From the NCBI GenBank assembly GCA_051294375.1, contig CM119267.1:25683293-25747292 (forward strand): 64,000 nucleotides of DNA. The letters run 5' to 3'. Origin of the DNA: Paraspadella gotoi (taxonomy: Eukaryota; Animalia; Chaetognatha). The position numbers and the translations under genes are program-made. Positions 2,318 through 64,000 of the stretch are shown here, one piece after another (the first letter of the stretch is position 1; each line of letters opens with the position of its first letter). The notes beneath the pieces are model-generated. The model was given only the letters and a program-made list of their open reading frames with translations. It was not told where the DNA came from and did no database searches.

Positions 2318-2539
2318 TATGGTGGACTAAAATCATCAGCGGCCATTGGTGCCGGAGGCAAGTCATTTGCCTCCCAACCCAAAGGCCCGGGGTTCTAGCC
2401 CGGTGGTTTCCTAGCAGTTAAGAGGGACGGGGCGCTTAACTCGCCTGTAACACGGTGTTACAGCCTGATCCGAAGCTCAGGGACTGCTTATATTGAACGG
2501 TTCTGTCACTAACACATAACAATAATTACTGTCTCTTCA
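2318..2539 (+). mobile_element. Solo LTR of TRIM family 2 (tRNA-like region + twister-like motif)
   Basis: Highly similar to LTRs 51450-51683 and 51866-52097. Termini TATGG...CTTCA. 4-bp TSD GTTT at 2314-2317 and 2540-2543. Confidence 0.88.
2413..2488 (+). ncRNA. Type-P5 twister ribozyme-like motif
   Basis: P5 AGCAGUU/GACUGCU; L1 GA-CGG; P1 GGCGCU; UAA (cut 2437/2438); GC-C; P3 UGUAACA/UGUUACA; G; P4 CCUGA/UCAGG; L4 UCCGAAGC (T1 CCG:CGG, T2 GC:GC). P2 is only 2-3 bp. Confidence 0.72.
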
Positions 2540-3029: not shown

Positions 3030-3235
3030 ATCATTTGGTTATCATCGCATTAATCATTTGGTTATCATCTCATCAATCATTTGGTTATCATCGAATTAAT
3101 ATTTGGTTATCATTGCATCAATCCGTTGGTTATCATCGCACCAATATTTGGTTATCTTCGCATCAATAATAAATTACTATTACATCAATCAATTATTATT
3201 ACATCAATAATTCGTTATCGCATCAATCATTTGTT
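3030..3235. repeat. Degenerate ~23-bp minisatellite
   Basis: Repeated ATTTGGTTATCATCGCATCAATC-like units. Confidence 0.7.
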
Positions 3236-3340
3236 TGTTTTTTTCGTATTTTTTTTTATTTATTATTTTTTAAATTAATTTTAATAGGATTTTTATGCTT
3301 AATTGATAACATGTATTTTTTCTGACTACTATTTTTCAGT

Positions 3341-6300: not shown

Positions 6301-7996
6301 TTTGACAGCCATGATGGAAGATTTGGGAGGTAGGCGCAAGCCAAGGGCAGGAGAAGGGATGACATTGAGGAAGTCTCCAGTTCTGGACAGGCAGACGGAT
6401 TGGAGGACGGCTCGAAAACGCTCATAAAATTAGGCATCGCATTCGTCCAACATCGGGTTTTTATTTCGTTCTTTCTTCTCGTCACTCTCTCTTTATTTTA
6501 TTTTTCTTTCTTTCCTTTCAATTCTTTCTTTCCTTTCTATTTAATTGCGACGATCCTTAAGGGGAGTTATCCCGATGGATCGAAATAAAAAATTATTAAA
6601 AGACAAAAATTATACTCAATAAAACATTCGTCTCGATGGTCATTTATTCGCCTTTTCCTGTACTACAATATGCACCAATCCAAAATTTTTCTAGGGGTCA
6701 ACTTTTTGAGATATGAGGGACAGAAGTTGGAAATCTAATAAAAGGTCTCTCTTTAAAAATATTTAAGTTAGCATAATGAGACTATGCTGGTTGATACTTC
6801 AAATAAGGACCTACAATTGGCAGTATGCGTTTTATTCTATTATCACAACTTTGTTTGTAAAGTCCAATCAAAAAAAAGAAAAAAACCTTTAATCTTGCGC
6901 AGGCATTTTAGCATAGAAAGCAGTCATTGATCACCAAATCGATACCCGGAGATGTAGCCAAGGGTCTAAATTGACGATTGAATGTATTAATTTTTGTTTG
7001 CCTTTTTTTGTCTCCAAGGAGAGGGTTTTTTTGAAATTTTTTTTTTTTTTTTTTAAATTTGAATAGTAGTTGCCACTATCTCTGAAATACCCTCACAAAC
7101 TCTTTTCTCAAGCAGAAAATAAAAAAAAGTAAAAATAAACAAAGATTTTATAAAAAATTAAATTTCTGGAGATTTTCGAATTTTCGATTTTATTTTTTAA
7201 TTTTTGGGCTTACCGTATTTTTAGATTTTCCTGAAATTTTTTTTGGTCTAATATCAAAAAAATTATGTTTAGTATCTAAATGAATAAATTTTTTATTCTA
7301 ACTAATGAGTCGTTCCTGTATCTCTAATAATATTCTCGGAAAAGTAAAAAAAAAAATGCAAGAAAAGTATATTCTCTCGAGCTGGGGAATTCTATGTAAT
7401 TTACTAATCCCTCTGCCTGATAACGATTAGTATTTTTGAATTTTTATTTTTACCGAGTCGTGGTTATTATTTAAGTATAAATGGTTTTTTAACTCTAGGT
7501 CATATTTCAAGAGGCCGAAGTGGGAAAGTACAAGACTCAATACGAGAATGTCCTTGAACAACTGAGGACAATGGAGGAAGCCAAGGAGGCGGACGAGGAG
7601 GGAAACCCTGAATTCATTTCTTCCTACTTGGAAAGGTATCTTCTTTCGAGTTTCCATTTAAAACTTTATAGGATTCCCAAAAGCTTCCGTTAACCCCGCA
7701 GGCTGAAGGCGGCCAACATGGAAAAGCTTGACCTACAAGAACGACTCAACGGGATGGAGGCCGTCGTGTCGGAGAACCACGAGTTGAGGAGAGAGTTGGA
7801 AGTTTGTAAGAAAGATCAGGACGACTTCTTCGTTTTGCTCAGCGGAGAAGAAGAAAAGAAAAACAAATATCGTCAGATGCTCAAATCGATGAACGTCGAC
7901 ATCAGCGATTCTTCTGAAGACGATGACGACGACGACAGCGGCGGCGGCGGCGGCGGCGTGCAAAGCGCTACGCCGTCTCAACATCTTGACGTTTAG
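3341..7996 (+). CDS. USO1: General vesicular transport factor p115 (3' exons; 5' exons lie upstream of the window)
   Basis: Exons ~3341-3810, 4028-4744, 4824-4982, 7499-7635, 7702-7996 with GT-AG introns. Motifs QQEIMASLLP, GQILCSGLF, KRQLLRVQLAT, RIGMETF, then coiled coil and C-terminal KDQDDFFVLL...KYRQMLK plus acidic tail typical of p115. Confidence 0.88.
3860..3967. mobile_element. Short non-autonomous repeat with ATCGTCGCAATCGC...GCAATTGCGACGAT inverted ends (Helentron/HINE-like); longer copies at ~5028-6558 (interrupted) and ~15662-16722
   Basis: Shared subterminal inverted repeats, T-rich insertion sites and microsatellite-rich interior. End fragments also at ~53660 and 54175-54260. 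Confidence 0.55.
5525..6420 (-). mobile_element. 5'-truncated CRE-like non-LTR retrotransposon (restriction-like endonuclease C-terminus, 3' UTR, poly-A)
   Basis: Minus-strand peptide CLSC..DIYGDHAISAC..RRHNLLRD..RPGD..TAFDVTV (CCHC + RLE motif), frameshifted. Poly-T at 5525-5542. TSD CTCATAAA. The empty site is seen in the related repeat at ~16150. Confidence 0.8.
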
Positions 7997-8475
7997 AATT
8001 AAAGATTTCTCACTCCAGTTTTCACCAAAATATTTTGGTCTTTTTTTAATTAATGATAAGAAAGAAAAGTCATCACGTTCCATAGTTTTTTCTATACTCG
8101 TCGCTTTCATATTTATCCGTAGAATTCATTCGCGTTTGAAATTTTATAACTAATTTACCATATTTTTAAATTAATCTAGTCATTTTGCGAATAATACAAG
8201 TTTTCTAGTTTTCAATTCAACCTTGAGTTCTTATTTCGACTAATTCTGCTAATTATTAAAATATAGTAGGTGAATAAGTAAGTCAGAAGGCCATAAGGCT
8301 TAAGCTTAATCCTTATTTTATACCTTTTTTGTTTTTGATACAACCGATTAGAAATAAGAGATTTTTTTCTCTTTGCCATATCTCGAATTTTCAAGGCGTA
8401 TATGACTAGTATGTACGTACTACGTAGTTGACAAAATTCGAAATCTCAACCAAAAACGGAGTTTCCTCATTGGCC

Positions 8476-10866: not shown

Positions 10867-12887
10867 TTTTGACAGTTGACCATTAGTGAGGCAGTGAGGA
10901 AGTTGAAATGTGTGTCCATTTTCTTTTTTTCATATCGATTCAAATATTTTTTGTTTGAATTTCTACCTCATTATGATTTACTGCAATATGCAAATTAGAT
11001 TATAGTACTTTTTCATTAATTTTTTTGATACTATACCCTGGCGAGTAGAGCGTATTCTAAATGTCAGTTATGAACAACATATATGAACAACATATATACT
11101 TAAGGGAGTGGTCTTTTCATATAATTGAAAACATTCTTTGAATATTTTCCACTTCATTGATAGGGAAGCCAGGTACTCTGGGAGTGAATAAACGAGACTG
11201 TGAGAGAGTCTTGATTGAAAGCTTGCAGGGACCTGCTATGTCATTATCTTGTAAGAGTGATGGAGGCCTTAAACACCAAAGCCTGTCCAAAGTCAGGGGC
11301 AAGATTAGGGTAGCCCCACTCAATGGGGTGAGTCAAAAATTAGAATGATTACATGCTCAAACGAAAATTTATACATTTTGAAGTATACTTTCAATGGACA
11401 AAACATTTCTTATGTGGCTTTATACCCAAATAATTATTTTTTAATATTTATTTATAAATAGGAAAGGCCAAAAATTTTTTTCATAATTTTTAAATTTTAA
11501 GACCAGATTCAGATAGCTCATAAAAAGTTGTCTACACAAAGTATAATTCTTTTTTAAATATTTTCATGATAAATAAGTCAAAAATAAGAAAAACCGTAAA
11601 AAATTATCATCATCATCTTTCGATAATTTTATCAGTTTTTTATATTTTCACATAGAAAACATAAAAATTTTTAAAAGCTGTAATTATATTTCTTGTTTAA
11701 CTTTTATGCTCTATCAGAATCCATCAAAAAATTTTAAGATTTTTAAAAAAAATTTTATAATGTAAAAAAAGATAAGTAATATTTAATGTATTAATCAAGA
11801 TGTATAATGTAAATTTTTTTTTGAAAATGATTGTTTAAATATTTAGTCAAGACAACTAAAAATACTTTGTTAATAGTCGAAATTTTATATTATCTCTGGA
11901 GTTGGTCCCTAGCAAGATAGCTTATTTATAAATGAATGGATAATTGTTTATTATGGTGTGTACCAATTTCATACCATCAGTGAACATAAATATATAAAAA
12001 AATTAATTTTATATTCTTAAATTTTTGCAGTAGGCTATATTTATATATAAAATCGAAAAATTTCAAAATAGGCTTTTCTTAATTTTTATTGCAGATTTGA
12101 ATTCCTCATCAAAAGTTGATAAAAAAAATATGAATCATTTTTAAAAATTTTTTTATTAAGTGGGTTAAAAATTTTAAAAAACTATATTAAAAAAAGTTAT
12201 ATTTCTTTATATCAACTTTTTATGACGAATCCAAATCTGCAAAAAAATCTTATAAAAAACTATTTAAAAATTTTAATATTTATTAGATTAGTAGTAGTAT
12301 AAATATGGCCCACTGCGTAAATTGTAAAATTTATTATGAATTTTTTTTATACATAAATGTTCATTAGTATAATGTTGTTCGTTCCTCACTTTTAGAATTT
12401 TAATTAAAGTTAAACTTAGGAATTTTACTACGCCTTACTCTATAATTCACTTTGTCGGTCCGTCGGTCCGCCCCGCTTTACTGGCGAGATCCTTATACTT
12501 TTAAGATTTTTTCATATTTTTTTTCGATCGACAAATGGATATTTTGTGTGAATGCGCTGATCATTTCTGCGTCATCATATTCGAAACTCCTTCGTAATAT
12601 TGGCTGACTTTAAAAAAAAAAGTAAATGAGGTTCATTTGTTTATGAAATTTAATTATGATTCCATGAAGGGGTTTTATTTGTTAACATTATAAAAAATAG
12701 TTTAGTTATATTTGTTTAGTTTAAAAAAGACATTACTACTACTTGGAAAACTATGTTATTCGGTATGTAGTTAATATAAACTAATGTTGTCAGGAAAAAA
12801 CTTGTACGCTGACTTGAAGCCCCAAAGTTAGATTCCATTTCCGTCAGATCTTTTTTGGATTGTGTCATTCCCAAATCTATGTGGGAC

Positions 12888-14837
12888 ATGTCGGCGAACA
12901 GCCTCCTTCATCTCGTCGACCACTTTCAGCGCGTCGAGTCGGCCGTCGTCGACCTCCTCTTCCTCAGTGCCGTCAAACTCCAGTCTCTCGTCGACGCCGA
13001 GGTTTTTCTCTTGGTCGCCGGCAAAGACCGGCGCCGCTTTTACGCCACTCCTCGTCTTGCGGCGTCTTTTCTCGACGGCGCCGTTGATGCGGGTCTGCAA
13101 GTCGAAGAGGGGGACGTCAGAGTGGAGCCGGTGGCGGAGGGAGGCGAGTCGACGAACGCTTGGATCGAAACAACGATTACATCTCCGCCTCAGAATCGAA
13201 AACGAACGACGGCGCCGACGCCTGACTCATCCTCTCTCGGCGCTAAAAGACGCCGGTCGTCGATTCCAGATTGGATCGCGGAACCGGCGTCGATCGCCGT
13301 CGACGACGGTGCCGACGTCAAGGAAGAGATTGAAGAGATTATCGTCGAAGACGACGACGACGATCATTCTCGAATCGATGTCGCTGCGGCGCGGGTGACG
13401 CCGTTTTCCACCGAGGGAACCCTCGAAGACGCCGGGGCCCCATTTGACGTCAATGAGGATCCTCGGGAGCGTCAGAAAATAGCGGCGTTGATGGGAGTGG
13501 AAGATCCGTGGGAGGCCTTTCGCAAAGGGACAGTTGAGAATCGCCTCCTCACTTCTGTCTTTTATAATTTCGGAAAGAATCTCGCTCTTCGATGTCCTGC
13601 GCATGAGGTGAGAGTCCACCGCGCCTTCCATGAGCATTTTCAGTTCGGGAAAGCCGCGGCTCAATAGTTTCTGTTTTTTTGTTTTTTTTTTAATTAAAAG
13701 GAATAATACTGTAATAATAGTAATAGAAACTCGATATAAGTTCATTTTCAGTCGGTCTTCCTACTTACGTTCTAAATGCCAATAATTCGGATAATATTAA
13801 TATTTTATCAATCAAGTTCATACAAAGTAAGAAAGTAAGGCACCATGACACTTTTAATGCTTCTTGTGCATATATTTTATTCTTTTGTAATGCTTAATTA
13901 CGTAACTTCATCTAAATTCGGTCATGTGATTAAAAAGTCAACTCGGTATGATGCGCGGGGTTTTCCGTCTCTTGCTCACCCTTCTGAGAGTATCTATAAC
14001 GCATGTAGGATCGAGTCTTTAAGGATCAAAGACTAGAGGTAAGCAAAAGCAAGCATCGGTAACATTAGTAATAACAACGACCTCGAAGGTAAGCTCGGCT
14101 TAGCCACTCTATTCGAACAATATAAACCGTAATAATAAACACTAAACCCGGGCGATGGCTAATTAATAAAATGCGATCTGTAACGAATGAAATCATGATT
14201 AAACAAAGTAATGAAATAACGATGAACAGTATTGTTTGTAAACAAATATTGATTATTTATATGTTTAAATACTTTTATAAAAGGTAAATAAGATCGCGTA
14301 TACCTGTTGGACATAAACTCTCGTCATAATCCGTCGGTGTAATTCGTGTAATACTAATAGTTGATTATTTTAAATAATATCTCACAAATAAGTGATCACC
14401 CATAAGTTGTTTGTTGTGCATATATTTTATACCTATGTATTCACGTGACTATGGAAAATGCGTCCACGAAAAAATGATACTGCGGCATTCTTTCGATTTT
14501 TCCACGAGAAAGAGAGATTGAAAGAATGGAATGGAAAGCAAAGCGTCGTTTCATAATTTTTCCGATCCTCTCGCGGAATTTTAATCTTAAATTTTGGAAC
14601 AAGGTGACTTTCTCTGACCCTTCCGTCTCCGCCTATTTCGCCCGCCACGTAAACGATTTCCTGCGCCAGTTTCCCCGCCTCCTCGTGGACCGAGAGGCGA
14701 AGCCGCCTTCGTTGCTCGAGTCTCCCGCCGATGACGTCCTACGCCATAAGACAGCCTCTTCCTTCATCAAGAAGGCGGCGAGAAACGGATTCGAGAAAGG
14801 AGTCGTTTTCTTGTGTAAAACGAGGGATAAAACTTGA
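12888..14837 (+). CDS. MADS/SRF-like N-domain family protein, paralog A
   Basis: Exons 12888-13607 and 14604-14837. N-terminal KLQSLVDAEVFLLV...FYATPRL; conserved C-domain DPWEAFRKGTVENRLLTSVFYNFGK...ARNGFEKG. Confidence 0.75.
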
Positions 14838-18224: not shown

Positions 18225-21200
18225 ATGTCCCAGGATTCTCTGCCTCCGCCTTTCCGCTCTCTCGAGATTTCTTGGACTGACTTTATCTTTGAGACTCTCC
18301 TCAAGCTGGAGTCGTTGACTGAGGCGCGAGTCTTTCTCTGCGTGGAGTCGCGGCGCAGAGAGGGAAGACGTTTCGGCGGTTCCAAGGATCTCGTCGACGC
18401 CTTCCTCGCGGGACGATTGGGAGGCGCCGCCGACGACGTCGAGGTTTGCTGAGGAGGAGGGGGGAGATTTAAATTTGATTAGATAGGCAAGTTTAATGGT
18501 GGGGGAAAAAATTTAGCCTACGAATATTGAAAGACTAGTTAGGAGTGCGGGGTAATTCGGAACACTTTTGTTGATAGGCAAGTTACCTGGTCGTTTATAA
18601 GGTTATTTTAAATATTTTTACATTTACTGATAGGAAATGATGTCAATATTGTTGATGCAACATTTCAAATCAATCGATTCACGCATTGAAAAATAATCTA
18701 CAAAAAATGGTCATTTTTCACGCCCAATTTTTAAAAGAAATCTGAGTTCGTTAAATTTTCTTTTTGGTTCCACTTAAATTTATAGCTTTGGTCGAGTGAC
18801 TTAATTTGTAACAAAAAAATTGATTTTCTTTGATATCTTTTGAACCAAAAATGATAGAACGATGAGACTGGTATCATATTAAAGCCATGATTATGGGGCA
18901 TCTTTTTCATATAATTTTTCTCAAACGTTTCAAAGGATTTTTCTTTATTCTGTATCGGAATCTTAGTCAAAAGTATAGCAACTGTCGAAATTAAATTAAA
19001 CATACTTGGCCGTATTTTAAAAAATAAAAAATTATAGATTCGAAAGAGAAAAGATTGAATTGTGGCAGCAAGACTTGGGGCTGCCTCACTGCTGTCCGTC
19101 CTCGGCCTCGTCTCAATGGCTGAGCAGGGTAAGTCATCTCATTCCATCCGTGCGTCCCGGGTTCAATCCCCGGGTATCCCGGTTCTGGCCTAAATGTGAC
19201 GGTGCCGGTATAAACATGCCAGTGACAGGAGGCGGTCACTGAGGGTCCGCAGCCCTACGCCAGTTGGTGAGATACCCCGCGCCCCGGGTATCACAGGCTA
19301 TCCTCCCGTTGCCATAAGTGGTGAGCCCTACTATCGAACACACAACCGCTGCGCACCGTGCACCCACGCTTACGTCGCTTAGGGTATGCATATCACGCCT
19401 ATGCCCTACTTCTCTGGTAACGCTCCAGACTCGCTCTCTCGCTCGCCCGCTCTCACTATGGCAATGAGATCAAAACCTTCTCTCAGACATCTCCTCAGGA
19501 TTGAGGCCCCTGTGGAGAAGTCTGGTGGGGGGATCCTGTGGCAGCAAGACTTGGGGCTGCCTCACTGCTGTCCGTCCTCGGCCTCGTCTCAATGGCTGAG
19601 CAGGCTAAGTCATCTCATTCCATCCGTGCGTCCCGGGTTCAATCCCCGGGTATCCCGGTTCTGGCTTAAATGTGACGGTGCCGGTATAAACATGCCAGTG
19701 ACAGGAGGCGGTCACTGAGGGTCCGCAGCCCCTACGCCAGTTGGTGAGATACCCCGCGCCCGGGTATCACAGGCTATCCTCCCGTTGCCATAGAATTATG
19801 TTTCTGATGTAATCAAAGATTTTATTTTTTTTTAAAACACATGTTTCGAACAGATTACTGTTCCTCATCTTTCTTAAATGTGTTATTGTATATTTTTTTT
19901 AAATATTACAGAAAATAATAACTAAAATACTATTATTAAGAGCATAGTCTTTCATTAATGTTTTATGAAATTGTAAATCTTAAGTGGGAAAAATGATTTT
20001 TAATATAATTTTTTTAGTTTTGAAAAATTATTGAATAACAATAGATAAAAAATTGGTAAATATTTTCTGATTATTTTTGACGAAGTTATTTATTTTCTTC
20101 AATTCCTGCATTTTGTCCCCATCTTCCTTTTCAATTAATATTTGGTTTTTGCCCATTTTTTAGTCGGATCTGCTTTCAGCAGATCCCGACTCTATAATTC
20201 ACTTTGTCGGTCCGTCGGTCCGCCCCCTCGGTATTGTCGGGCACTCACTTATATCAAGTCATAACATCGAATTATAATTAGAAGTAGAAGGGGCGATTGA
20301 CCTGAAAATTTGTATGTGGGTAGGAAAGTGTGTGATTAAGCTGGAAACTAAGTTTCGATGGAATCGTCTGAGTGGAAATGAGTTTAAATGGAAAAAACAA
20401 AAAACCTGTTTCACTAATGGATTATGCTTCTTTTTCTTTTATATTAAATGTAAATGCAAGATGTATTAATTATTCAGTTAATTAATCAATTAGTCAATTA
20501 ATTAATCAATAATTAAATAATCAGTCAATCAATTAAGTCAATCGTTATCAGCATTATTCTCATCGTCGTCATTGCTTTTGTCGTGGTTAGTGCGGAAAAG
20601 ACCTAAAAACAAACCTTTTAATCTAATTAATTAATTAATTAATTATCGATAATGATCGTGGGCAGATCCGACATTGTTTGCTTTTTTTATTTTTTTTTTT
20701 ATTGCTAAAAATTTTTACTGTAATATTAATAGTATAACAATTTTTTCAGCTTAATTATTTAACAAATGTTGCTAACTCTTATTATTACTTAGTAAATTAT
20801 CACTAACGCGTTATAAAAAGCATATGAGCTAACACAGAAGACTTACTTTACAGGTGTTCCGTTTTACCCCAATTTAATTGTAGCTATGTAAAAAATAATT
20901 AAATTATATGTCAGTTTTCCGTATTACCTCCGTTCCCAATTCCCCCTCACTGCCCTAAAGTTTTTGTTAAACTTAAACTTTAAGTTAAAGTTTAAGTTAA
21001 AGCGGAATCTTGACAATAAAAAATATTTTTACCAATCGTCTAACTGATATCGCTTTTCAGGTGACGCTTGACAAATCGACGAACGTATTAAGGGAGGCGC
21101 CGCCTCGACGTCCGAGGAGGAAGAGGAGATCTCATTACGAGGATGAAGATGAGGCGCCGTCGTCGAAGCGAGCCTCATTGGCTGACGAGCGGTTCGTCGA

Positions 21201-21878
21201 ATCCGATTCGACGACGACGATGACGACGACGACCCCCTACGACACTTCTTTCGGTCCCGTCGTCCTCTTCTCAGAACCAGAAGTCGGTGGTGGACTGGCT
21301 ACGCCCATCAAGACAGAGACGACGCCGAGCGGCTTCGTTTCCGGCGTCGTCGCCGACTTGGACGATGACTTTCTCGCCCAAAACGCCCTCTCTCCGTCGC
21401 CCTCCCGCCCAGGGTTCTGCCGTCTCCCGACCTCCGATCGCCTTGCCGCCAAAATCGCGGCCATTCAGAGCGTCGCGGACCCTTGGCTCGTCTACAAAAA
21501 GGGAACGGTCGAGAACAAACTCTTCTCCTCCGTCTTTTACGAGTTCGGGAGGGATCTGGCCTTCGGGTGCGGGATGCCTGACCCCTCCCTCAAGGACCCA
21601 AGGGTATGGCGAAGGACTTTACTATAATACAAATGTGTATGCAAATGAGTTTACCAATTCTATCATCGCTCCCGCAGATTCACGACGCCTTCTACGACGA
21701 ACTCAGAGTCTTCATCGCCGCCAACTTTTCCAGATTCGATTTGAACAGAGACGAGAATCCCAACTTGGGCGAGGACGACAACTGCCTAAAAAAGTATTCC
21801 GCGATGGCTTACATGCGTGACTTGGCCCGGGGAGGCTTTAAGAAGGGGGTCATCATCATGACTAAGAAGAGGGCGTGA
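18225..21878 (+). CDS. MADS/SRF-like N-domain family protein, paralog B
   Basis: Exons 18225-18443, 21061-21603, 21678-21878. ETLLKLESLTEARVFLCVES; DPWLVYKKGTVENKLFSSVFYEFGR; MRDLARGGFKKG. Confidence 0.78.
19117..19170 (+). promoter_or_regulatory. tRNA-like internal Pol III promoter (A box/B box) in TRIM-1 LTR; second copy ~19593-19646
   Basis: A box TGGCTGAGCAGG (19117-28); B box GGTTCAATCCC (19160-70) in a T-arm-like stem. Confidence 0.7.
19185..19263 (+). ncRNA. Type-P5 twister ribozyme-like motif (5' LTR of TRIM-1)
   Basis: P5 CUGGC/GCCAG; P2 AUGU/ACAU; L1 GA-CGG and UAA (cut 19211/19212); P1 UGCCGGUA; GC-C; P3 AGUGAC/GUCACU; G; P4 AGGG/CCU (one C missing vs the 3' LTR); L4 UCCGCAGC. 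Confidence 0.72.
19661..19740 (+). ncRNA. Type-P5 twister ribozyme-like motif (3' LTR of TRIM-1)
   Basis: Same fold with complete P4 AGGG/CCCU. Predicted cut at 19687/19688. T1 CCG:CGG, T2 GC:GC. Confidence 0.8.
20161..20685 (+). mobile_element. Helentron-associated non-autonomous element (HINE/DINE-1-like); relatives at ~12440, ~50435-51070, ~51310-52460 (-), ~57550-59170 (-)
   Basis: 5' GTCGGATCTGC with adjacent inverted copy, GTCGGTCC microsatellite, 3' subterminal GCAGATCCGAC, T-rich flanks. Confidence 0.65.
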
Positions 21879-22192
21879 CAAAAGAGGCCATTGATATATT
21901 CTTCGTCGTTTTAAAAATTACTACCTTACTATCTCTTATAATGATTACTTAATTGATCTCATGTGAGAATTTTTTTTTTAACCCGGATTAATAATAATCA
22001 AAAAGTAAAACGTTTCCTTGATTATAACATCTTTTTTAAAAAAATACTGAAAACGAATCATGTAATTATTCTTTTTTTTTAGTTTGTAATTCGTGATAAA
22101 AATTGAAATGGCATTTTTATAAAGTTATGTTACTTTTTTCTTCGCGATTCTGTTCATTCGTCTATTTATTATTCTCCAGCGAATTTCTTGCC

Positions 22193-23555
22193 ATGACCAC
22201 CATATCCTCTTCCCTTTTCAACCTGACGAGCCGCTTCGAGGAGATCGAAGGTTCCATGTGCGACCTGATGCTGGAGACAGTCCTCAAACTGTCCGCGCTG
22301 ACTCAGTCCCGCGTGTTTCTCTGCGTGGAGTCGGCGTCGTCGTCCCCTAAGCGCCGCATATGCGGATCCGGTGATATGCTCGACTCTTTCGTCGCCGGCT
22401 CAATGCGACCCTGCGACGCTGACGTGATCGTCGAGTTGGCAGCTTCGACGTTTCGATTGCGGGAACGCCCTTTGTCGAACGGGACGACAAAAGGAAAACA
22501 GAAGCGTTCCTGGGCGGATAATTATCCTTTGACGCCGGTGGAAGACCAGGATTGGCAACCTTCTGCGTCCAAGAAAAAGGCGCAAGGGTTTCCGGTTGAA
22601 TCGCCGCAAACGCCATTCGATCCTTGGACGACGCACTTGGAGGTCGACGAGCGAGTTGGCGGCGCCGCCCGCTTCGGCGCCGGAGTCGAGATCGTCGTCG
22701 CCGCCAAAAGAGAGATCGAAGAACTCGTCATCGACGACGACGCCCAGTTAGGAGACGGCGTCGTAGAGATTAAATGTGGCGTCGTTTCGAACTCTTCCGT
22801 CAACGCCGGATTGGACTCCTTGACGAACGACGCCGTGGAGTCCTTGGCAGTGTTGTCCGATAGGCGCGCGGCCAAGATCCTCGCTTTGCAAAGCATCACT
22901 GATCCTTGGCTCGCATTTCGAAAAGGCTCAGCTGAGAATAGAATTTTTGCTTCAGTCTTCTACGATTTCGGCAAAAGGTTCGGCCTCCTGGTTCTTAAAT
23001 ATTTATTAAAAACAATAAACATTTTTCTTCGTCATTTTGTCTTTTAATGATTTTTATGTGGCAGTACGACTTGAAGCTGTTCATCCTCACCCTCTTCTTA
23101 ATGGTGTACAAAATCATCTCAACCGTGAGTCCCGTTCAATCTCTGGGTACCCCAGTTCTGTGAAGGGACCGCGTTAAAAACGCCAGTGAGGCGGCCTTTG
23201 AGGGTCCGTAGCCCCTGGTATCACAGTAATTCCTCCCATTGCCATAATTCCCACTTTTCCTGTTCTAAGCTTCGCCCTGGAAAACCACGACGATCCCGAC
23301 CCGATGGGCAATCGCAGCCGCGAAATCTTTTTTCAACATCTCAACGAGTTCGTGAAGCGTAACTTCACTCGGTTCGTCCTCGATCGTCGCGTCGGCAATC
23401 CCATTGTCGGCACCGAAGAGGATTGCCTCAAGTCCTACTCGGCGCTGGGGTTCATGAGGAAAATCGCTCGGACTGGATTCATGACGGTCATCAAGCGGTT
23501 GGAGGAAAAAAGGAGCAAAGGGAAAACCAGAACCTCGTCGTCCTCTTCGAGATGA
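22193..23555 (+). CDS. MADS/SRF-like N-domain family protein, paralog C
   Basis: Exons 22193-22977 and 23270-23555 join in frame (FGKSFALEN). ETVLKLSALTQSRVFLCVES; DPWLAFRKGSAENRIFASVFYDFGK; MRKIARTGF. Confidence 0.78.
23057..23246 (+). mobile_element. Old diverged solo LTR related to TRIM-1
   Basis: Termini TGTGGCAG...TTGCCATA. Retains GTTCAATC and GAGGGTCCGTAGCCCCT (twister P4/L4). No clear TSD. Confidence 0.75.
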
Positions 23556-24242: not shown

Positions 24243-25450
24243 AATGAGTTGATCAAATTAGTGGATAGCATTTGCAGTTTTTGATTATTTTCTTGGCGAT
24301 CCCGGAGTTGAATTCCCTCGGGGGAGGCTTATGGGAAAACGAAGAGAAAAAAGAGGAGAAAATAAAGTTTGTTTCTTTACGGAAAAAAAAATTTAAGACC
24401 GTAACAACAATGATATTAAAAACGTTTTTAAGCTTCACGAGCTAAGGAATTCTTTTTAATTCTTAAAAAAATTTAATTATAATATTTTTTTTCATTGCCT
24501 TTGATAGATATTTACAAAATAAGTTTTTATAAGTATTTGGATACTAACTTTCAGAGATAGAGAGAGAGGCAATTTTAACCTTGATATCTCTCACTCTCTC
24601 CGAATTATTAAATGACCATTATAATCATAAACAAAATTTTGTTATTTTGTAAATATTATTATTATATTTTTTACAAATTTATTAATATTTAAATAATATT
24701 TTTTGAAATGTTAAATTATTGTATACTTAAGCCGAAACTTAATTTTAAATTTAACTCTAATTTACCCCTAACCCTAATTTACCCCTAACCTTAACTTACC
24801 CCTAACTTATTTTTAACCTTAATTTATTTTTCTAGTTAACCTAAACTTATTGTTAATTTATTCTTAACCATAATTTATTGTAACCTTAATTTTTACCAAA
24901 ATATATATTGGTTGTACCAATTTCATATAACAAAAATAAAAAATCTCTAACTGGTGGGCTCTGGGCCTAACTAAAACTCACGTCTATCGGAAACGGAAAG
25001 GCATGGGAGGTGAATAAGTATATTTCATATCTGGGTTCTATACTCTATCCGAAAATATAAAAAGGTCCAAAAAAAGGGAGAGAGAAAGAGGCGGAGAGAG
25101 AGAGAGAAGATGGACTGAACCTAAACTTGAACGCGGCCCCGAATCCCCGTTAGGAGGATGAGGAGGGAGGAGGAAAAGAAGAGGAGCTGTAGACCCGCGT
25201 AGTCTACCGGCCTTCGATTCTGAAAATATTTAAAAAAATTATATCTGAATTTCTTTATTTTTTTCCCGAAACATCCTCTTTTGTTCCATTTCGTTTCTCT
25301 TATTTTTTCCGTTATAATTCTTTAAGAAAAACCTTGCTCTTCGTTTTCCCATAGGCCTCCAGAGGGCATTGATCTCCAGGAATGCCATTTTCTTTTTGTT
25401 ATTTGTTATCTCAAAAGCAATTGCTTTATTTCGCTCTTATTCAGAGAGCC

Positions 25451-26629
25451 ATGAGCAACAGCAACGCCGGTTTTCAAACGACTTCCCTTTCGGGACTGTC
25501 GACTTATTTGCAGCAGCTTGAGACTTCCTTGACGAGCTTCTTGCTGGAGACGGTGCTGCGGTTCCAGGCGATGACTCGGTCGCGCGTCTTTCTATGTATA
25601 GAGTCGGACGAGCGGAAAGTCTTTTGCGGAACCGATGGCCTCGTCGACGCCTTCATCGCTGGCGATTTGACCTTCGTCGCCGAACGTGACGTCGAGGTGA
25701 CGTTGGAGTCGACGACGACGGCGTTGAGGGAGAGGGTTCCGGCGGACGCTTCGAGGAGAAGGAGTAGGAGAAAAAGGAAGAACGAAGAGGTGGAGACCCA
25801 GACTTCTGCGAAAAAAAAATCCTTGTCGGGAGTCGAGGATTCGAAGGTTGTCATCCTTGTTGTTGTAATTGTTGTTTTATTCTAAACCAGAAAACTATTC
25901 CCTTTTTGCCTTCGATGCTTTTTAGGCCATCGTCGCTCTAAAGTCGGAGCCTTCGACGTTGATTCCGTCTTCAGTCAAAGTGGTAGAGGTCGTCGTTGAC
26001 GACGATGAGGACGACGAGATCGTCTACTTGGTCGACGAGGACAACGACGACAGCTTTGCCTTCGTCGGCGTCGAGTCTCCAGACGCCGCTCACCCTTCTT
26101 TACTCTACGACTCGATTCCCGAAAAAATGTCGGCGAAAATGTCGGCCATCGATTCGATCCAAGACCCGCTCCTAGTCTACAAGAAAGGCTCGGCCGAAAA
26201 CAAGATCCTCGCTTCGATTCTCTACGACTTCGGCAAGATGTTCGGCGTGGCTTGCGCCGAGGAGACAGTTTTGCCCGCCTCCGAAGCCGAGTTCGCCTCT
26301 ATCCACCCGCCTTTGGAGAAGCGGAGGCTTTTTTACATCATGCTTGAACGGTGAGAGCGGAAATTTAATCTACATAGTACATTTTTCTTATTTAAAATCC
26401 ATTATTATTTTTTGAATTTTTCTTATTCAGTTTCATCGCGGAAAACTTGAGTCGATTGACCGTGGACCCGGAAAAGAACCCCTTTGCTGGAACCGAGTCT
26501 GATTGCATGAACGCCAATTCCAAAGTAGCGTACATGAGGAACATCGCGCGCTCTGGCTTTCGGGGAGCCTTTCGCAGGACCATGAGTAGACGATGGAAAA
26601 AAAGGGGCCAGTCTAACTTCGCTTTTTAA
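25451..26629 (+). CDS. MADS/SRF-like N-domain family protein, paralog D
   Basis: Exons 25451-25846, 25926-26350, 26431-26629. ETVLRFQAMTRSRVFLCIES; DPLLVYKKGSAENKILASILYDFGK; MRNIARSGFRG. Confidence 0.78.
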
Positions 26630-28889: not shown

Positions 28890-31800
28890 ATGTTGAAACA
28901 GCGGATTGGTGAATACGGACCCGATTCTGGTGGACGAGTCAAAGGCGTCACTATCATGAAACCCATCGTATTCGGAAATCAGGTCGAGTGATGGTGATGG
29001 CAGATTGACTAGCGTCAATTGTCTCATGGTTAAATATTATAGTGGAGATCCTTGTTATTATTATATAATGCTCTCTCCGTTTTTCTGACCGAGAATCGGT
29101 TCTGACCAAATCATTGAACCAAATTTGATGCGTACAATGGACATATAAATGAGACTATCGAGGCGATTGTAACCGTGTTTTACCCCTGAGCTATGATTCA
29201 GGGCCATGGGGGGAGGTCACTCCAGTTGGGCAAAACTGACCAAAATACTTTTTTAAAAAAGAGACATTTTTTGGGTGGGATCAATTACATTTATGTCCTA
29301 ACTTTGTAGAAAAAACATTTTAAAACGAATTTTCATGAATTTAAATTGATTTTTCGTCCTTTGAAAATGCTGAGACTGTGGCGAATTCTCAATCAAACAT
29401 TTTTGAAGTAATAAATAGGTTTTTGTAGAAAAGTAAATGTCTGTGCAACTGTTCAAAACAAAAATATTTAAAAAATTTGTATTTTAGCGAAAACAAAGTT
29501 TAGATTTGTACTACAACGATTTTTTATTTAATGTGAACAGACATGTTTCGACTCTTGTTCGAGCCTTCATCAGTGTTTTGACAGACTATCAAAATCTTTG
29601 CAAAAATAATAAGTGTGTGAGAGAGAGAGAGACAGAGTTAAAGTTTCCAACAAAGTGGTGAGACAGAATAGTGGTCAGAGGTGAGGACAGGTGAAGGCAA
29701 GGCCAGATTGAGTGAGTTTTTGAAAAGAAGTGAAATGGTCAAACAGAGAGAGAGAGAGAGGTAATATGATACATTTGTGCAATGTACAACAAAGATATAA
29801 GATTTTAAAGTGGAAATAACAATTAGCTAAATAATAAATTAAATTAAATATAGAATTTGAAATGTGAAATATGAAAAATTACATTTGTTAGGGATAATTA
29901 AGTTAAAGAAAAGAAAGGATGAAATATAAGAGATAAGATAGAGCTCAAAATGAGCTGGCCCCCTTTGGTGGAGCAAAGGAGAGACATGGACGATGTGGTC
30001 AGGTCATTAGCGCGTCAATGGTTGAGAGGAGAGTATTACTGAGCTGGTAAATGTCGGGCTGGGGATTGTTCCTTGTGGGAACATTCCTAGTGCTACTCTT
30101 ATGTCTCTCTGGCCTGTTACGCTTGCTGACTGCCCTCTTCTCGCCTGCTGGTGAGATGGGTGGGTGTCCGTTCTTGCTGCTTTCGCGGCAGGAGTGGTGG
30201 ACTCCTCTCCTTCCTCCTGCAGCCGTCGTTTTGGGGGACGCTCGGTCCACAGAGAGAGGGACTGAGTTGCTGCATTTGAAGGAGAGGCATCGCCTGTCCA
30301 TTGCCTGCGCAAGGGTCTCCGCCTGCCTCGTTGAGTGGAGGTAGGGGAGTCATTGTGCGGACGTGGTGGAGGCGGGGCCTTCACCATGCTTTTGATAAGC
30401 GAATCATAGCTTGCAGGGAGATCGAATCGTCCTCCATCACGGTTCAAAGAGGGCTCGAGAGCTTTGATGTAGACTGCCTCTCTAATACCTCTTGAGAACC
30501 AGTTCGGGTCATGGGACAGCACGAGACAGTCTGATTCTCTGAACAGATGGCCTGTATTTGCCGAGTGTTCGGCAATTGCTGACAAGTAGTGACCTCGGGC
30601 GTCACGATAAGGCTTTGTCGATCTGTCAGAGACTTGCCTGTCTCGCCCACGTATGCTGCTGTGCAGGCTTGGTTGCCCTCCCCTGCACAGGCCGCCCAAT
30701 AGACGGCTCCTGATGTTTTCTGTCTGGGAATTTTATCTTTCGGTTTCACCAAATGCTCACGTAGAGAGCCGCGGGTCGTCACTGAAGTGGAGATTCCCTG
30801 CTTTGCCAGCACCCGCACCAATGCTTCAGTGATTCCCTGGTGGTAGGGGAGGGACAAATCTAAACTAACTGATGGGTAGGTCCATCGTCTTTATCTCTCT
30901 ATGAGTAAAGTCAAAGGAAAAGTCCAAAAAATAGGCAAAAAAAGTATATTCTCTGAGAGGGAGCTCGCGAGCTGAAGTAGAACCCAAGACAGAACTAAAA
31001 TCTCTCTCTTTGCTCCTTCTGTCGTCGCTCGATGAGGAGGAAGGGAAAGGGAGGAAAAGAGGCGGAAGAGGAAGAAGAAAAGGTGTCTCGAGCGAGAATG
31101 GGGAAGAGAAATGGGGGAATCCAGTGAAATATACTCATCCCTCTATCTGCTAAACTTTGTTTTCGCTAAAACACCAAAACTCAACAAAACGAAAGGAATA
31201 CCACATTATGGCTAAAAAATTTTTGACCATTTTTTGCCCCAATGGGTGACCCCCCAGAGGGCCCATATCTTGGCTCAGGGGTCAATTATTGAAATTTGCC
31301 TTGATATTTCTATTTGTATTCAGATAGGGATTGTTCATTCCAAATTTCAATAAATTTGATCCAGTAGTTTTCTCGGAACGTGTTTTGATCACAAAAAAGG
31401 GGTACCACATTTTATAATATGAAATTATAATAAAAGACGTTTTAAATTGTTCAAACAACGATTTTATTAGGGTAAGACGGACATGTTTCGGCTTTAATTG
31501 TACAAGCCTTCATCGGCGTCAAAGATGTTTGTGAATTTCAAACAAAGTTTGTGCAAAGGAAAGGAGAGAGAGAGAGAGAAAGAGAGAGAGGGCAAAGTTT
31601 CCAACACAGAGTTGAGAGAAGAATAGTGGTCAGATGTGAGGACAGGTTAAAGTGAGGACAGAATGAGCTAGATTGTGAAAAGAAACTAAATGGTGAAAAA
31701 TTGAGAGAGAGAGAGAGAGATAGAGAGACATTTGAAAGATAATACATTTTTTGTAATGTACAACAAAGATAAATTGTTGAAACTAAAGGTGAAATAAATA

Positions 31801-35254: not shown

Positions 35255-35461
35255 TAATCGCCAATTAAGATATTGCATTCATTGTTTAATTTTGATCTAT
35301 TATTTCATAATTTTTAGATTAAACGGGAGAATTTATTCTCATTGGCAAACATTTGGTCAAGCTTGGACAAATTTTAATCGTAACTTTTCAAAGCGAAAAC
35401 TTTTTAAATTTTCTTTCGTTCTCTATAATTTTGAATAAAAGGTTGACGATTAGACATAACC

Positions 35462-41111: not shown

Positions 41112-41215
41112 TTTTAACGGTTAACCGTTAAAAACGTTAGTTTTAACGGTTAACCGTTAAAAACGTTAGTTTTAACGGTTAACCATTAAAAACGTTAGTT
41201 TTAACGGTTAAGCGA
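41112..41215. repeat. Short tandem repeat (~30 bp) containing palindrome TTAACGGTTAACCGTTAA
   Basis: 3-4 units read directly. Confidence 0.8.
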
Positions 41216-51200: not shown

Positions 51201-51482
51201 TTCCTCCTCCTCCTGCCCCTCAGTATATTTTGTCTAGCGATACATTCTCTAGTTTCTACTCTTCGCGAAATATACTATTATTTTCCCTCTATTTCCTCAC
51301 GCCTTCAATACCCCTCAAGATTACAAATAATAATTAATTAATGCAGCTTGAATTTACATTTAATATAAAAAAAATCATAATCAAATAGTGAAATAGATGG
51401 TTTGTTTTTTCTATTTTAACTCATTTCCACTTGGACGATTCCATCGAAATATGGTGGACTAAAATTCACCAACCGTTCATCA

Positions 51483-51553
51483 GCGGCCATTGGTGCCGGA
51501 GGCAAGTCATTCGCCTCCCAACCCAAAGGTCCGGGGTTCTAGCCCGGTGGCGG
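51483..51553 (+). promoter_or_regulatory. tRNA(Gly)-like sequence with A/B boxes in TRIM-2 LTR
   Basis: Acceptor-like GCGGCCA/TGGCGGC, A-box-like TGGTGCCGGAGG, loop GCCTCCCAA, T-arm CCGGG GTTCTAG CCCGG. Confidence 0.6.
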
Positions 51554-51556
51554 CCT

Positions 51557-51632
51557 AGCAGTTAAGAGGGATGGGGCGCTTAACCCGCCTGTAACATGGT
51601 GTTACAGCCTGATCCGAAGCTCAGGGACTGCT
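51557..51632 (+). ncRNA. Type-P5 twister ribozyme-like motif (5' LTR of TRIM-2)
   Basis: Same fold as 2413-2488. L1 GA-UGG pairs with L4 CCG through one wobble. Predicted cut 51581/51582. Confidence 0.68.
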
Positions 51633-51972
51633 TATATAGAACGGTTCTGTCATTAACACTTATCAATAATTACTGTCTCTTCATTAGTGAGGCCGACTTC
51701 CGAACACAACAGCAACAACACTTTCAGGCAACAGGCCTCAACCTGGCGATGCACTTTCCGTCAACAACTCATCAGGCAACATGCCTCAACTTGGTGACGC
51801 ACTTTCCACCAACAACAATTCACTGAAGAGACGCAACAGATTTCTCCCTACGGGAGGGGGGGATGTATGGTGGACTAAAATCCACCAACCGTTCATCAGC
51901 AGCCATTGGTGCCGGAGGCAAGTCATTCGCCTCCCAACCCAAAGGTCTGGGGTTCTAGCCCGGTTGCCGCCT

Positions 51973-52048
51973 AGCAGTTAAGAGGAACGGGTCGCTTAAC
52001 CCGGCTGTAACCTGGTGTTACAGCCTAATCCGAAGCTCAGGGACTGCT
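51973..52048 (+). ncRNA. Degenerate twister motif (3' LTR of TRIM-2)
   Basis: Same fold, but the presumed general-base G reads A (AGAGGAACGG) and P1/P4 carry mismatches. Likely inactive. Confidence 0.5.
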
Positions 52049-54350
52049 TATATTGAACGGTTCTGTCACTAACACAACAATTATTACTGTCTCTTTAGAA
52101 ACTTTATTTCCTGCTCAATCAGACACTTTCCTACCCATATACAAAATTTGAAGTCAATCGCCCCATTCATTGGCGGTCAAATAGTGAAATATATTTTTTT
52201 TGTTTTTTCCATTTCCACTCGGACGATTCCATCGAAACTTTATTTCCAGCTCAATCACACACTTTCCTACCCACACACAAAATTTTATTCCAATCCATCC
52301 ATCAAATCACGAGTAATTGGTGTTTTTTGCGAAGGTGGGACGGACGGACGGACATTATTTTTTTTGCATAGTTTATCACAATTCGATGTTCTGACAAGAT
52401 TAGGGGTCAGACCGACAAAGTAAATTATAGAGCCGGAATCTGCTGTAAGCAGAACCGGCTAAAAATGTGATTTTGGTAAATTCATTATTAAATTCACAAA
52501 ATCATTAGGAAAGCCTCCGATTTAGTACGAAAGTTTTATTCTTTCTCGGGATCTTAATCTCGCCGCTGCACTTTATAAAGCTTCTTTTGAATCAAGTGGT
52601 CCTGTTCTAGGGATAGTTGGAATAAGTCATGTCGCAAGAATAATTGCAAATTGGAACAATAATTAAAATAAATAAAAATAATAAAATTTAAAAAAATAAT
52701 AATAATAAAAATTAAAAATAATAATAATAACAAATAATAAATAATCGAGAGTATCATTTCCTTTAATTGTATTGTATTGAATTTACTAAACCTGGAGACC
52801 TCTGTGACTCCTCTAAGAGTGTCATTTTCATTTAACTGGAGGAAAAAGAGTAGGTTAAAAATACTACTGTCACTGTTCTTTAAACTATATATTGTTTTAT
52901 CGTCAATTTTTTGTGGTTTTATTACATTTACAATTTTACATAGATTGATTTGACCGATTTAAATTTAGAAAAAGATGAAAACATTGAATTAAAAGGAAGC
53001 ATAACAGTGATTATTATTGTGAAACTGTCATTAATAAATTACTATACCATATGATTCTGTGCAGTCAACAATCGTGCTTTTTGAAACTCAGGTATTGTTA
53101 TGTACCCGTAAATATTTTTAATTAACTTTTAAATCATTATTTGCTTGTCAACTTTTTTTCAGAATTCGAAATGTCAAAACAGTCTGATGGAGAGTCTCTG
53201 AAAACTTTTAATCACCCAGGTTTGGGTGCAACAGTCAAAGATTCAAGATTTCATGGAGCCTACGAGGGGCCTAACAGCGGAAATCTATGGTAACCATTTG
53301 TTTCCAGTTTCCAGTTAGTATTTACTGGTATTACCGATAACATAAGTAAAACCTAAAATAAAATTATAACTTTTTTTTGGAGGATAGAAAATTATAAAGG
53401 GAACAAGTTTGAGCAAACAATGTCGGATCTACCTACGATAATTAATTAATTAATTAATTAATCGATTAATTAATTAATTAATTTTAATATGTAATAATTA
53501 ATTTTAAATTTATATTCAACTTATCATCATCGATGTCCTTAAAATTGGGTTAGGACAGTTATTAAATGTTTTGTTTACATTTTATCAAAACAAACAAATA
53601 TCCTCTATTTTATTTTATGTCTCCTCTCTCTCTCTCACTCTCTCTCTCTCTCTCTCTCTTTTTATGCAATTGCGACGATCTTTATGCTTTTAAGATTCTT
53701 TTAACTTACATCATTTTTTCACATTAATTAATTAATTATATAATTAAGTAAAACATTTATTAGTAATCATTAATATTAAAGATTCAAGTAAATGTGACTC
53801 ATGTTTTTTCCATCTAAACTCATTTCCACTGGCACAATTCCGTCAAAACTTTATATAATTATTATATGTTAATAAATATTTAAAAGCTTCAGTGCAACAA
53901 CCCAATGAACTAATTCAAAAAGTTACATTGAAAATCGATTTAGTAGTAAAAGGAAAAAAAATTTTTAAAGAGAACTAGAAGTTATAAAAAATGTTCAATT
54001 TTGGCCCGCCTTACTAGATATATTTCATGTGATTAAACAATGTTATCGGAATAATAATTTTATCAATTTTATGTATTTTGTAAGTATTTTAAGTATTTTT
54101 ATTCAGTGAGTAAAATAACAACTTTTTTATTTGCTAATTTTAATCTCGGACTCTCTCTCTCTCTCTCTCTCTCTCTTTGCAATTGCGACGATCCTTATGC
54201 TCATTTTTCTGCTTTCTCTCTCTCTCTCTCTCTCTCTTTGCAATTGCGACGATCCTTATGCTCATTTTTCTGCTCTCTCTCTTCCTCTCTCTCTCTCTCT
54301 CTCTCTACTCGCTCACAAATTTCATCTCAATCTATTATGGGTTAAAATAA

Positions 54351-61793: not shown

Positions 61794-64000
61794 GTGGTGA
61801 ATTTATTGATTAGCACTTCGTTAAAATTTATTCTAAAATAGTCATAATATTATTTTTATTATCATGTCAAATAATTGCGCAAAATAAGTTTATCTACTAA
61901 TTAAATAATAATCAACTAAAAAAAAGAATTTCTTTGAAAATATTCATTACTGTAAATACTTTTAATAAAAAATTTTCAAGGTTTTGGTTTTCATGAACTT
62001 GGTACAACCAATACCGTATAAAATTATCCATTCATTTAATTAATGAGCGTTGTTGTCACACTACCTTGCGCTTGACTTTGGACAGGCTATGGTGGTTTAA
62101 GACTTTCTCACAGTCTCGTTTATTCACTCCCAGAGTACCAGGCTTTCATATTAATAAAGTGGTAAAAGAGTACAGAAGGCTTCATATTATAAAATGTAGT
62201 ACCCATTTTTTGTGACCAGAACACGTTCCGAGAAAACTACTGGACCAAATTTATTGAAATTTGGAATGAATGATCCCTATGTGAATACAAATAGAAATAT
62301 CAAGGCAAATTTCAATAATTGACCCCTGAGCCGAGTTATGGGCCCTCTAATGGGTCACCCATTGGGGCAAAAAATGGTCAAAAATTTTTTTACATGGTAT
62401 TTTTTCAAATATTTTTGTTATTTGAACCAGTTGCACAGATGTTTACTCTTCCACAAAACCTATTTATTACCTCAAAAATGTTAGTTTACCTTAATTTTCA
62501 TCTTCATGAACACTATTCTGTTCAGTCAGATATTGGAATAATTTTGGAAAATTGGAAAGTAACACGATGAACCATGCATTTTCAAACAATGCTTTTATAA
62601 TTTATCAATTCTTGATTCTACACATTTTTTTTACATGTTAGAGACGTCAATAGCACCTGATTGCTGACTAAAATTATTAATATAGAAAAAAAAATTTTTT
62701 AGCCTTTTTTGGCCCCCAGGGGTCCAGCCCCAGGACCCTGTATCTCTTGTCAGGGGTTGAATATCAAAATTCGCCTCGATAGTTCCATTTATATCGTCAT
62801 TAGGACTGTATATGTAAAATTTCATAAAATTCGATCGAGTACTTGGGTAGAACAGATTCTGGTCACAAGAAAGGGGTACACATTTTATAATATGAAGCCT
62901 TCTGTTAGACGAGAATCTCGCTTAAAAAAAAATTTCAACATTTTTCTAATAGAGAATTCCGTTCAAATCTGACTACCCAAATTGCAAACGGCGTTTGCCA
63001 GAAATTCGGTTAAAAAACACGCTTAAAAACGCACGATTCCGAAGTGTTACATCTGAAGAGCTTGTCCTATTCGTTTTATGGCATTTGATAAAGGATTTAA
63101 TATCAAACAAGCAGGGGAAATGCACTACTCATCTCCGGAGAATTTTCAAACCTCATTTTTTACTATAGAAATGAAAGGGAAAGTTTAACAAACTTAAAAT
63201 TGCAAACGGGATTGCTATATGTTCCTGTTACATGAGCAACTTCGAATTTCGCGATTCAATAGCTTTGTGTCTGAAGAGCTTGTCCTATTTTTCTTTTTTC
63301 ATTTTATAATGATTTTGACATAAAATGATCAGGTTTAAATGAAATAGTCCAGTTTGAATCGCGAAATTTTTATTTAAAAAAAAATTAAAAGGAAGGTTGA
63401 GAAAAAAACTGATTTTTCCTAATATCTTTTGAAGGAATAAAGATAAAGGGATGGCAATAGTACAAAATGAAGCCATATATATAGGGCACATACACAGATA
63501 CAATTTTAGAATTACTTATGCTGAAACCTCCTTACAGGAGGTGAGTATCAAACTAAGTCAAAATTATAATGAATTTTAAAACTAATGACACCCCACAAGA
63601 ATAAATGAAAATTTAATTCTTTTTAATGATTTTGAAAGAAAAAAGGCTAAATTGTACTCTAGTAAAACTTTAAAGTTTTTTGAATAAAGAAAATGTAAAT
63701 TTTTTGTCACTTAAATATTTGCTTGTCTGATTTTACAAGCATGCTTACAAAATTCTACAAAAATATTATTTACCCCATCAAAGCCTAAGTATTTTCCTTT
63801 CTTTCCACCAGCAAAAGTAAACATTATCTTATTGAAGAGAAGCGGATGTTTACTAAAAGGAGCCGGAAGCCATTCAACTTCTTCACTTTGATGTTATTTT
63901 TTCAATAATAAAATAAGCGAATTTTTATATTTTTAACTCTCACAGGCTTCATAAGATATTACACTTTCATAATATCCCAATGTTAATGTAATTTATTAAT

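Follow-up and report, generated by a model that had tools for sequence, protein, structure and literature searches.

A short palindrome at the cut site of a twister ribozyme raises the question of which strand it pairs with. An earlier note on this DNA had claimed that P1 is self-complementary in the twisters of two LTR families, with little or no room for a loop, and had proposed that two twisters in one full-length transcript could swap strands through it, so that cleavage would need both LTRs. Here we address these claims in the window, that is, the whole stretch of 64,000 nt that was analysed, which is AT-rich, animal-like DNA with many repeats.

A structural descriptor built from P2, both pseudoknots and P4 found five intact twister folds in the window, all of type P5 (L4 starts at 2469, 11286, 19246, 19722 and 51613), while five block shuffles of the window yielded 0, 1, 0, 0 and 0 folds. 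The folds are spread over three repeat families (two each in families 1 and 2, one in family 3) and have a common order, P2'-GA-T1'-P1-UAA-P2-T2-(P3)-P4-L4, ending in P5. The UAA cut triplet, the GA before T1' and an L4 with U...A are present in all five, and the core columns of the alignment are invariant except in decayed copies. Both sides of T1 (CGG/CCG vs UGG/CCA) and of T2 (GC/GC vs AC/GU) change between families with pairing kept, and P4 (3-5 bp) and P5 (5-6 bp) likewise differ in sequence among the three families and remain paired. P2 reaches 4 bp in family 1; family 2 has 3 bp and a bulged A, and the window copy of family 3 has 2 bp. Twister activity is not assured, because the family 1 L4 carries C (19250) where the other families carry A, and because P2 is short and bulged in families 2 and 3. 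A reading as P1-type twisters with a downstream partner strand was ruled out, as the descriptor lists P5 only and no P2'-GA-T1' lies downstream.

In Rfam, family 3 matches Twister-P5 (RF02684) at 27.5 bits, under the gathering score of 37.6; this is the sole Rfam twister match, families 1 and 2 having no match in the window search at E up to 10. Weak Rfam matches at 41093-41244 are probably spurious and come from an array of short self-complementary GTTAAC-based units located there. The order of elements and both pseudoknots are those of the type-P5 class (Roth et al., 2014, via PMC5408937 and PMC6154101). In contrast to RF02684, P1 is a palindrome of 6-8 nt here and a hairpin of 15-26 nt among the listed phage and prokaryote matches, and families 2 and 3 have a P2 of 3 bp that includes a bulged A. 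Where a type-P5 twister has an intramolecular P1 hairpin, the folds described here can form only 0-2 pairs, with positive free energy. The family 1 features are as follows.

19061..19316, plus strand: 5' LTR of family 1, 256 nt, with contig loose ends at 19060/19061 and 19316/19317.
19057-19060 and 19793-19796: target-site duplication (TSD) GAAT, 4 bp.
19117..19169, plus strand: Pol III-like boxes, A at 19117 and B at 19161, assigned by the box consensus.
19593-19645: the same boxes repeated in the 3' LTR (19593, 19637).
19185..19263, plus strand: 5' twister fold, type P5, with P5 at 19185-89/19259-63, P2' 19194-97, GA 19198-99, T1' 19200-02, P2 19214-17, T2 19218-19, then P3, P4 and L4 19246-53.
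19203..19210, plus strand: palindromic P1 segment, with the inner six bases (19204-19209) kept among copies and the outer pair variable.
U19211^A19212: predicted cut of the 5' twister.
19319..19536, plus strand: internal region, with a PBS-like TGG start at 19319 and a purine tract at 19524-19533.
19537..19792, plus strand: 3' LTR, with the second intact twister fold at 19661-19740.
19679-19686: P1 segment of the 3' twister, with predicted cut U19687^A19688.
23057..23246, plus strand: decayed family-1-like solo LTR, with T1 and P2 mismatched.

Families 2 and 3 contribute the following.

2318..2539, plus strand: family 2 solo LTR, TSD GTTT, with a twister fold at 2413-2488, P1 segment 2431-2436 and predicted cut U2437^A2438.
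51450-52097, plus strand: full family 2 element, TSD GAAA at 51446-49 and 52098-101.
51450..51683, plus strand: its 5' LTR, with a twister fold at 51557-51632 and P1 segment 51575-51580.
51866..52097, plus strand: its 3' LTR, with a decayed twister.
2347-2400 and 51491-51544: family 2 Pol III-like A/B boxes, upstream of the twister.
11246..11305, plus strand: family 3 twister fold, type P5, absent from the earlier note.
11264-11269: P1 segment AGGCCU of family 3, with predicted cut U11270^A11271.
62065..62160, minus strand: family 3 relative, with the 5' half (P2', GA, T1', P1) gone and the 3' half kept.

Families 1 and 2 have the anatomy of LTR retrozymes, namely an LTR pair, a 4-bp TSD, PBS, PPT, no coding capacity and one ribozyme per LTR, here of twister type. 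The PBS and PPT labels follow the usual anatomy of LTR elements, the PBS being assigned by motif; the A and B boxes, assigned by the Pol III consensus, form a tRNA T-arm-like hairpin inside the LTR, and ARAGORN found no tRNA gene. No T4 run occurs inside a family 1 or family 2 element, including between the LTR copies, and none follows the family 1 boxes before 19820. From cut to cut the unit measures 476 nt in family 1 and 416 nt in family 2. Small, high-copy non-coding retroelements thus carry type-P5 twister folds in their LTRs, with cleavage predicted.

Family 3 has neither an LTR pair nor an intact partner copy in the window. In the repeat that bears its twister (11125-11330), an AATAAA precedes the fold and no Pol III B box is clearly recognisable, and no link was found between this family and the Penelope-like ORFs of the window. 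The latter, two fragments in inverted orientation at 30007-32942 that are presumably of GIY-YIG type by their motifs, had no Pfam match. Three minimal type I hammerheads of Penelope-like kind, with ACAUGU as stem III, lie on the minus strand (cores at 10863, 29573 and 60649), in agreement with the earlier note. Other coding features of the window include a cluster of paralogous-looking ORFs with two short motifs in common (12813-13667, 21001-21627, 22100-23047 and 25373-26354), one motif of which presumably resembles a MADS-box helix and three tested members of which had no Pfam match at E 0.01, as well as an open frame of 1175 codons that includes a long repeat region rich in Glu and Lys (35447-38974).

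The P1 segment between T1' and the UAA triplet reads UGCCGGUA in family 1 (19203-19210 and 19679-19686), GGCGCU in family 2 (2431-2436 and 51575-51580) and AGGCCU, a perfect palindrome, in family 3 (11264-11269). In all five intact folds it is 6-8 nt long and fully self-complementary with G.U allowed, with centres that differ by family (CCGG, GCGC and GGCC) and homoduplex energies of -10.9, -8.3 and -9.1 kcal/mol in families 1, 2 and 3, respectively. Self-complementarity was therefore confirmed at the sites cited in the earlier note and recurs in a third family. To say that a loop has no room is too strong, since a loop of 4 nt can be closed by one pair in families 2 and 3 and by two in family 1, with energies of +5.0 to +5.6 kcal/mol.

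Since the outer pair would be complementary in any P1, the centre is the proper test. A Watson-Crick palindromic central 4-mer is expected by chance with probabilities of 0.067, 0.063 and 0.062 at LTR composition (product 0.0003), and arises in 144/1680, 8/60 and 24/180 permutations of the respective segments (product 0.0015); the central pair alone does so in 480/1680, 24/60 and 60/180 (product 0.04). Products of about 0.0003-0.002 hold only if the families are independent, and they overstate that independence because the families look homologous around P1, where the sequences of families 2 and 3 correspond position by position. The alignment suggests that the twister families probably share ancestry and are not three fully independent draws. 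Between families 2 and 3, two central, adjacent bases are swapped on both sides (GCGC/GGCC), the only two-sided palindrome change seen; if the families are homologous, such a change is explicable only by a second strand, because adjacent bases cannot pair within one strand.

Ordinary P5 twisters were drawn from viral contig scans and one genome contig scan, comprising at least 603 loci. Most loci from two of the viral scans and from the genome scan were chance matches, and only descriptor-passing loci were used. The strict P5 descriptor passed 45 of the 603 phage and prokaryote loci listed, with 23 distinct P1 segments, and among these listed matches 22 of the 23 segments are hairpins of 15-26 nt with 6-11 bp. 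The remaining one (L391, positions 1-238 of a phage contig, minus strand) was set aside as a P5 comparison, being a head-to-tail pair of P1-type twisters with a period of about 47 nt; their junction is a 6-nt palindrome. Another locus (L196), AT-rich, failed the G+C filter and was dropped, and 120 metagenome loci found with a 16-nt family 1 word were chance matches, none matching over more than 35 nt. By sequence, a palindromic P1 of 6-8 nt is unlike the ordinary P5 twisters of phages and prokaryotes, a norm for these groups only, because the search patterns favour one P2 type and the set contains no eukaryotes.

Conservation of the palindrome among genomic copies was assessed on contigs of public runs. 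For family 1, contigs of four runs were used (1282, 1735, 146 and 3 contigs; 80% likeness, 2% share), and the variant listing is complete with 25 rows. At the outer pair, 19203 T>A accounts for 1.9, 8.7 and 10.5% of depth in runs X1, X3 and X8, 19203 T>G for 0.2, 0.8 and 2.2%, and 19210 A>C for 1.2, 5.0 and 1.3%; the outer U-A pair is broken in a subfamily, and one X3 contig carries both outer changes. The first base of the segment may instead extend T1, which is given as 4 bp in PMC9901934. The sole inner variant, 19204 G>A (0.4, 1.5 and 2.8% of depth; 14, 20 and 4 contigs), turns G.U into A-U, and positions 19205-19209 and 19211-19244 have no variant at or above 2% of depth in any of the four runs. 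The single X10 contig over the family 1 P1 shows no change. Hence the inner six bases stay self-complementary among copies and the outer pair is not kept, with only subfamily-level changes visible because depth is dominated by young copies.

For family 2, with 15,680 contigs in X3 and 955 in X8, variants were taken from the best 40 of 85 rows, the lowest at about 2.4%. Among these rows the sole P1 variant is 51577 C>T (5.3%), which falls within the 3.0-11.9% range of other CpG sides, core T1 and T2 positions included; the common non-CpG variants lie in the P3 loop and the flanks, and none of those listed is in P1. Because the P1 CpG decays like CpGs elsewhere, variation at the level of copies is mostly neutral and tests little, and it fits a fixed palindrome in the source elements, though as weak evidence. 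The family 2 copies (51440-51720) show strong C>T/G>A decay at CpG, at 29 and 28 places in X3, which suggests CpG methylation of repeats in this genome. Organisms B, C and D (runs X10, X11 and X12) were represented by 3, 1 and 2 contigs, respectively, those of X11 and X12 lying outside the family 2 P1.

Two decayed copies in the window lost the palindrome together with core features. The segment at 23167-23174, in the family-1-like solo LTR, is no longer self-complementary; the family 2 3' LTR, whose copy is absent from the earlier note, has GUCGCU (51991-51996), not palindromic, and in that twister the general-base position (51986), the P1 segment, T2 and one P4 pair are all altered. The sole two-LTR family 2 element of the window therefore has a decayed, non-palindromic 3' copy. 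The expectation that palindromy is kept across copies thus holds for the inner six bases of family 1 and fails for its outer pair, while family 2 offers only CpG decay.

The reading that we prefer, and to which we would give about an even chance, is that the palindromic P1 pairs with that of a second copy and that two copies are predicted to cut faster than one. A Pol III-type promoter in the 5' LTR would drive transcription of a single precursor that spans both LTRs. In this RNA, the 3' half of the first twister (A) and the 5' half of the second (B) would make an ordinary type-P1 twister, with a P5 loop holding the whole 416-476-nt unit; the two palindromes would supply a full shared P1 of 4-8 bp, and the remaining two halves would form a second site at the far end of the same helix. 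In the swapped arrangement A-up pairs with B-down (P5) and A-down with B-up, P2' of A with P2 of B and P2 of A with P2' of B, and the two palindromes pair with each other, all of these helices being nested. Both cuts would release unit-length RNA with a 5'-OH and a 2',3'-cyclic phosphate, which would then be circularised as in retrozymes. A lone copy, whether in a solo LTR or in the circle, would be limited to 0-2 P1 pairs and would be a slower, though not necessarily an inactive, ribozyme. A unit-length circle holds one twister and would therefore be stable only if one copy cuts poorly, so that the gain for the element would most likely be a circle that does not promptly re-cut itself.

Folding models bear on this arrangement. 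For the family 1 precursor (19106-19830, stems fixed, pseudoknot bases left unpaired), the swapped fold lies 6.7 kcal/mol below two local folds, compared with +0.1 +/- 3.2 kcal/mol for permuted segments, 2 of 40 sampled being as low as native. Two-copy models place the native segment 6.8, 3.1 and 6.3 kcal/mol below the permutation mean in families 1, 2 and 3, with 6 of 300 sampled permutations, 8 of 60 and 4 of 180 as low as native; only differences from the mean are used because absolute two-copy energies are biased (means -7 to -9 kcal/mol), and the effect of the family 2 palindrome is weak given its composition. In the unconstrained ensemble of the family 1 precursor, in a model without pseudoknots, P2, P5 and the palindrome duplex all have probability 0.0. 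Since none of these helices appears without constraints, the swapped-fold energies speak to feasibility and not to occupancy.

Several reports concern how far P1 is needed at all. A twister without P1 was reported to cut "with almost wild-type rate" (PMC5408937; also PMC6154101), while P1-less cleavage was called inefficient, and activity tied to P1 pairing, in PMC8501958, which also describes natural Schistosoma variants with a mismatched P1 as active. The mini-twister has free ends, in contrast to the folds of families 1-3, in which the ends are tied by four bases. In one rice twister crystal, intermolecular dimers were seen and judged an artefact (PMC5408937). An obligate version, in which the two LTR copies assemble into a single double ribozyme on the shared palindromic helix, with cleavage confined to the full-length precursor and with solo LTRs and the circle left intact, seems doubtful to us, since the dispensability reported for P1 makes a strict need for both LTRs less likely. 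The tetraloop-closed monomer is sterically ordinary and nothing in it forces a dimer, and a local fold can close while transcription is still some 400-470 nt short of completing the second copy. The claim that cleavage needs both LTRs is thus not supported, in view of these points and of the near wild-type rate reported without P1 (PMC5408937), whereas palindromy, the nested swapped fold and the energy preference agree with the proposed strand swap.

Precedent for two-copy action comes from hammerheads. In axolotl, a hammerhead whose cut-site helix is a single pair capped by a palindromic tetraloop showed 6% cleavage as a monomer and far more as a dimer (PMC7229834), and Penelope hammerheads also act as dimers (PMC6765202). 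As in the axolotl/newt retrozyme and Penelope-like hammerheads, the cut-site helix described here has 1-2 pairs and a palindromic loop, a palindromic minimal helix being what characterises a dimer-acting ribozyme, and it lies in tandem repeats of a retroelement where the helix can be common to two copies; unlike them, the ribozyme is of another class, and the dimer cleavage demonstrated there is here predicted (PMC7229834, PMC6765202). The gain from dimers may be smaller for twisters, because hammerhead stem III is needed and twister P1 is reported as dispensable.

It is possible, though we think it improbable, that P1 is simply vestigial: the local monomer fold would cut, and the segment would serve as a linker or as a stem of 1-2 bp capped by a tetraloop, its palindromic centre being inherited or accidental. 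This would accord with the mini-twister, in which P1 is dispensable (PMC5408937), with the local P5 stems of 5-6 bp that close the monomer in all three families, and with co-transcriptional folding, which would favour the local fold; moreover, the central pair alone reaches only p of about 0.04 and the families probably share ancestry. Against it stand the three different palindromic centres, the G.U to A-U variant of family 1 and the long P1 hairpins of ordinary P5 twisters (22 of 22 among the listed matches); nor does a monomer account for complementary adjacent central bases. Less probable still is that the palindrome pairs RNAs as a dimer-initiation signal for packaging by a helper LTR element, cleavage being monomeric; it would then be accessible either within a loop of the circle or at the 3' terminus of the cleaved RNA. 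GC-rich 6-nt palindromes initiate retroviral RNA dimers, the homoduplex energies of -8.3 to -10.9 kcal/mol speak for such a role, and families 1 and 2 should need a helper particle because they carry PBS, PPT and TSD hallmarks. A literature search on palindromic dimer signals in non-autonomous elements found nothing. Against this reading, all three families have the palindrome exactly in the register of P1, no LTR pair accompanies family 3 in the window, and a flanking hairpin of kissing-loop type is absent.

The full version of the earlier note, an obligate dimer selected to spare host pre-mRNAs that carry a solo LTR, appears the least probable of these explanations and has little in its favour. 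Exons of USO1/p115 (about 3340 to 8000) and an IMPACT-like gene are encoded on the plus strand, and the intact family 2 solo LTR is in sense orientation and sits 5' of a USO1/p115 exon whose coding begins near residue 392; no upstream USO1 exon was found among 23 plus-strand ORFs of at least 45 aa tested in 1-3330, so the LTR is probably intronic. Solo LTRs also appear common, judging by contig loose ends in families 1 and 2. Nonetheless this is one insertion whose intron status is deduced, monomer inactivity would conflict with the P1-less twister (PMC5408937), and selection on a replicating element would act first on its own RNA. Within the preferred reading of pairing between two copies, protection of the single-copy circle would be the more economical rationale.

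The closest known elements are plant LTR retrozymes (Cervera et al., 2016, PMC4918200), which share the non-coding LTR-internal-LTR structure, the 4-bp TSD, PBS and PPT, one ribozyme per LTR and solo LTRs. They differ in carrying a type III hammerhead and not a twister, in their host, which here is animal-like, and in unit length, about 600-1000 nt compared with 416-476 nt; circular RNA is predicted here, and the LTRs described here have Pol III-like boxes. Plant and animal retrozymes have been described as without promoters (PMC7761336), though the abstract of another paper reports an LTR promoter. The T-variant twisters of Schistosoma Perere-3 are also retroelement-borne with a weak P1 but are type P1, lie at the 5' end of a non-LTR element and take P1 from the target site (PMC8501958); the words palindrome and dimer do not occur in the available text of that paper. 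An unpublished observation of truncated twisters at the 5' ends of RTE elements is mentioned in PMC7761336. The available parts of PMC5680766, PMC10085705 and bioRxiv 10.64898/2026.07.22.740005 contain nothing on dimer-acting twisters or twister LTR retrozymes, and our literature search found no dimer-acting or palindromic-P1 twister and no twister LTR retrozyme, though the supplementary alignments of Roth et al. could contain loop-less eukaryotic P5 examples.

With these elements the range of LTR retrozymes grows beyond plants, to an animal-like genome, and beyond hammerheads, to twisters, and twister ribozymes of this kind are likely under-counted because they are missed by Rfam. If pairing between copies is borne out, a second ribozyme class would have converged on the double-hammerhead solution for counting copies, with a compact two-copy AND gate for RNA engineering as a by-product, and the conserved but "dispensable" P1 would have a natural role.
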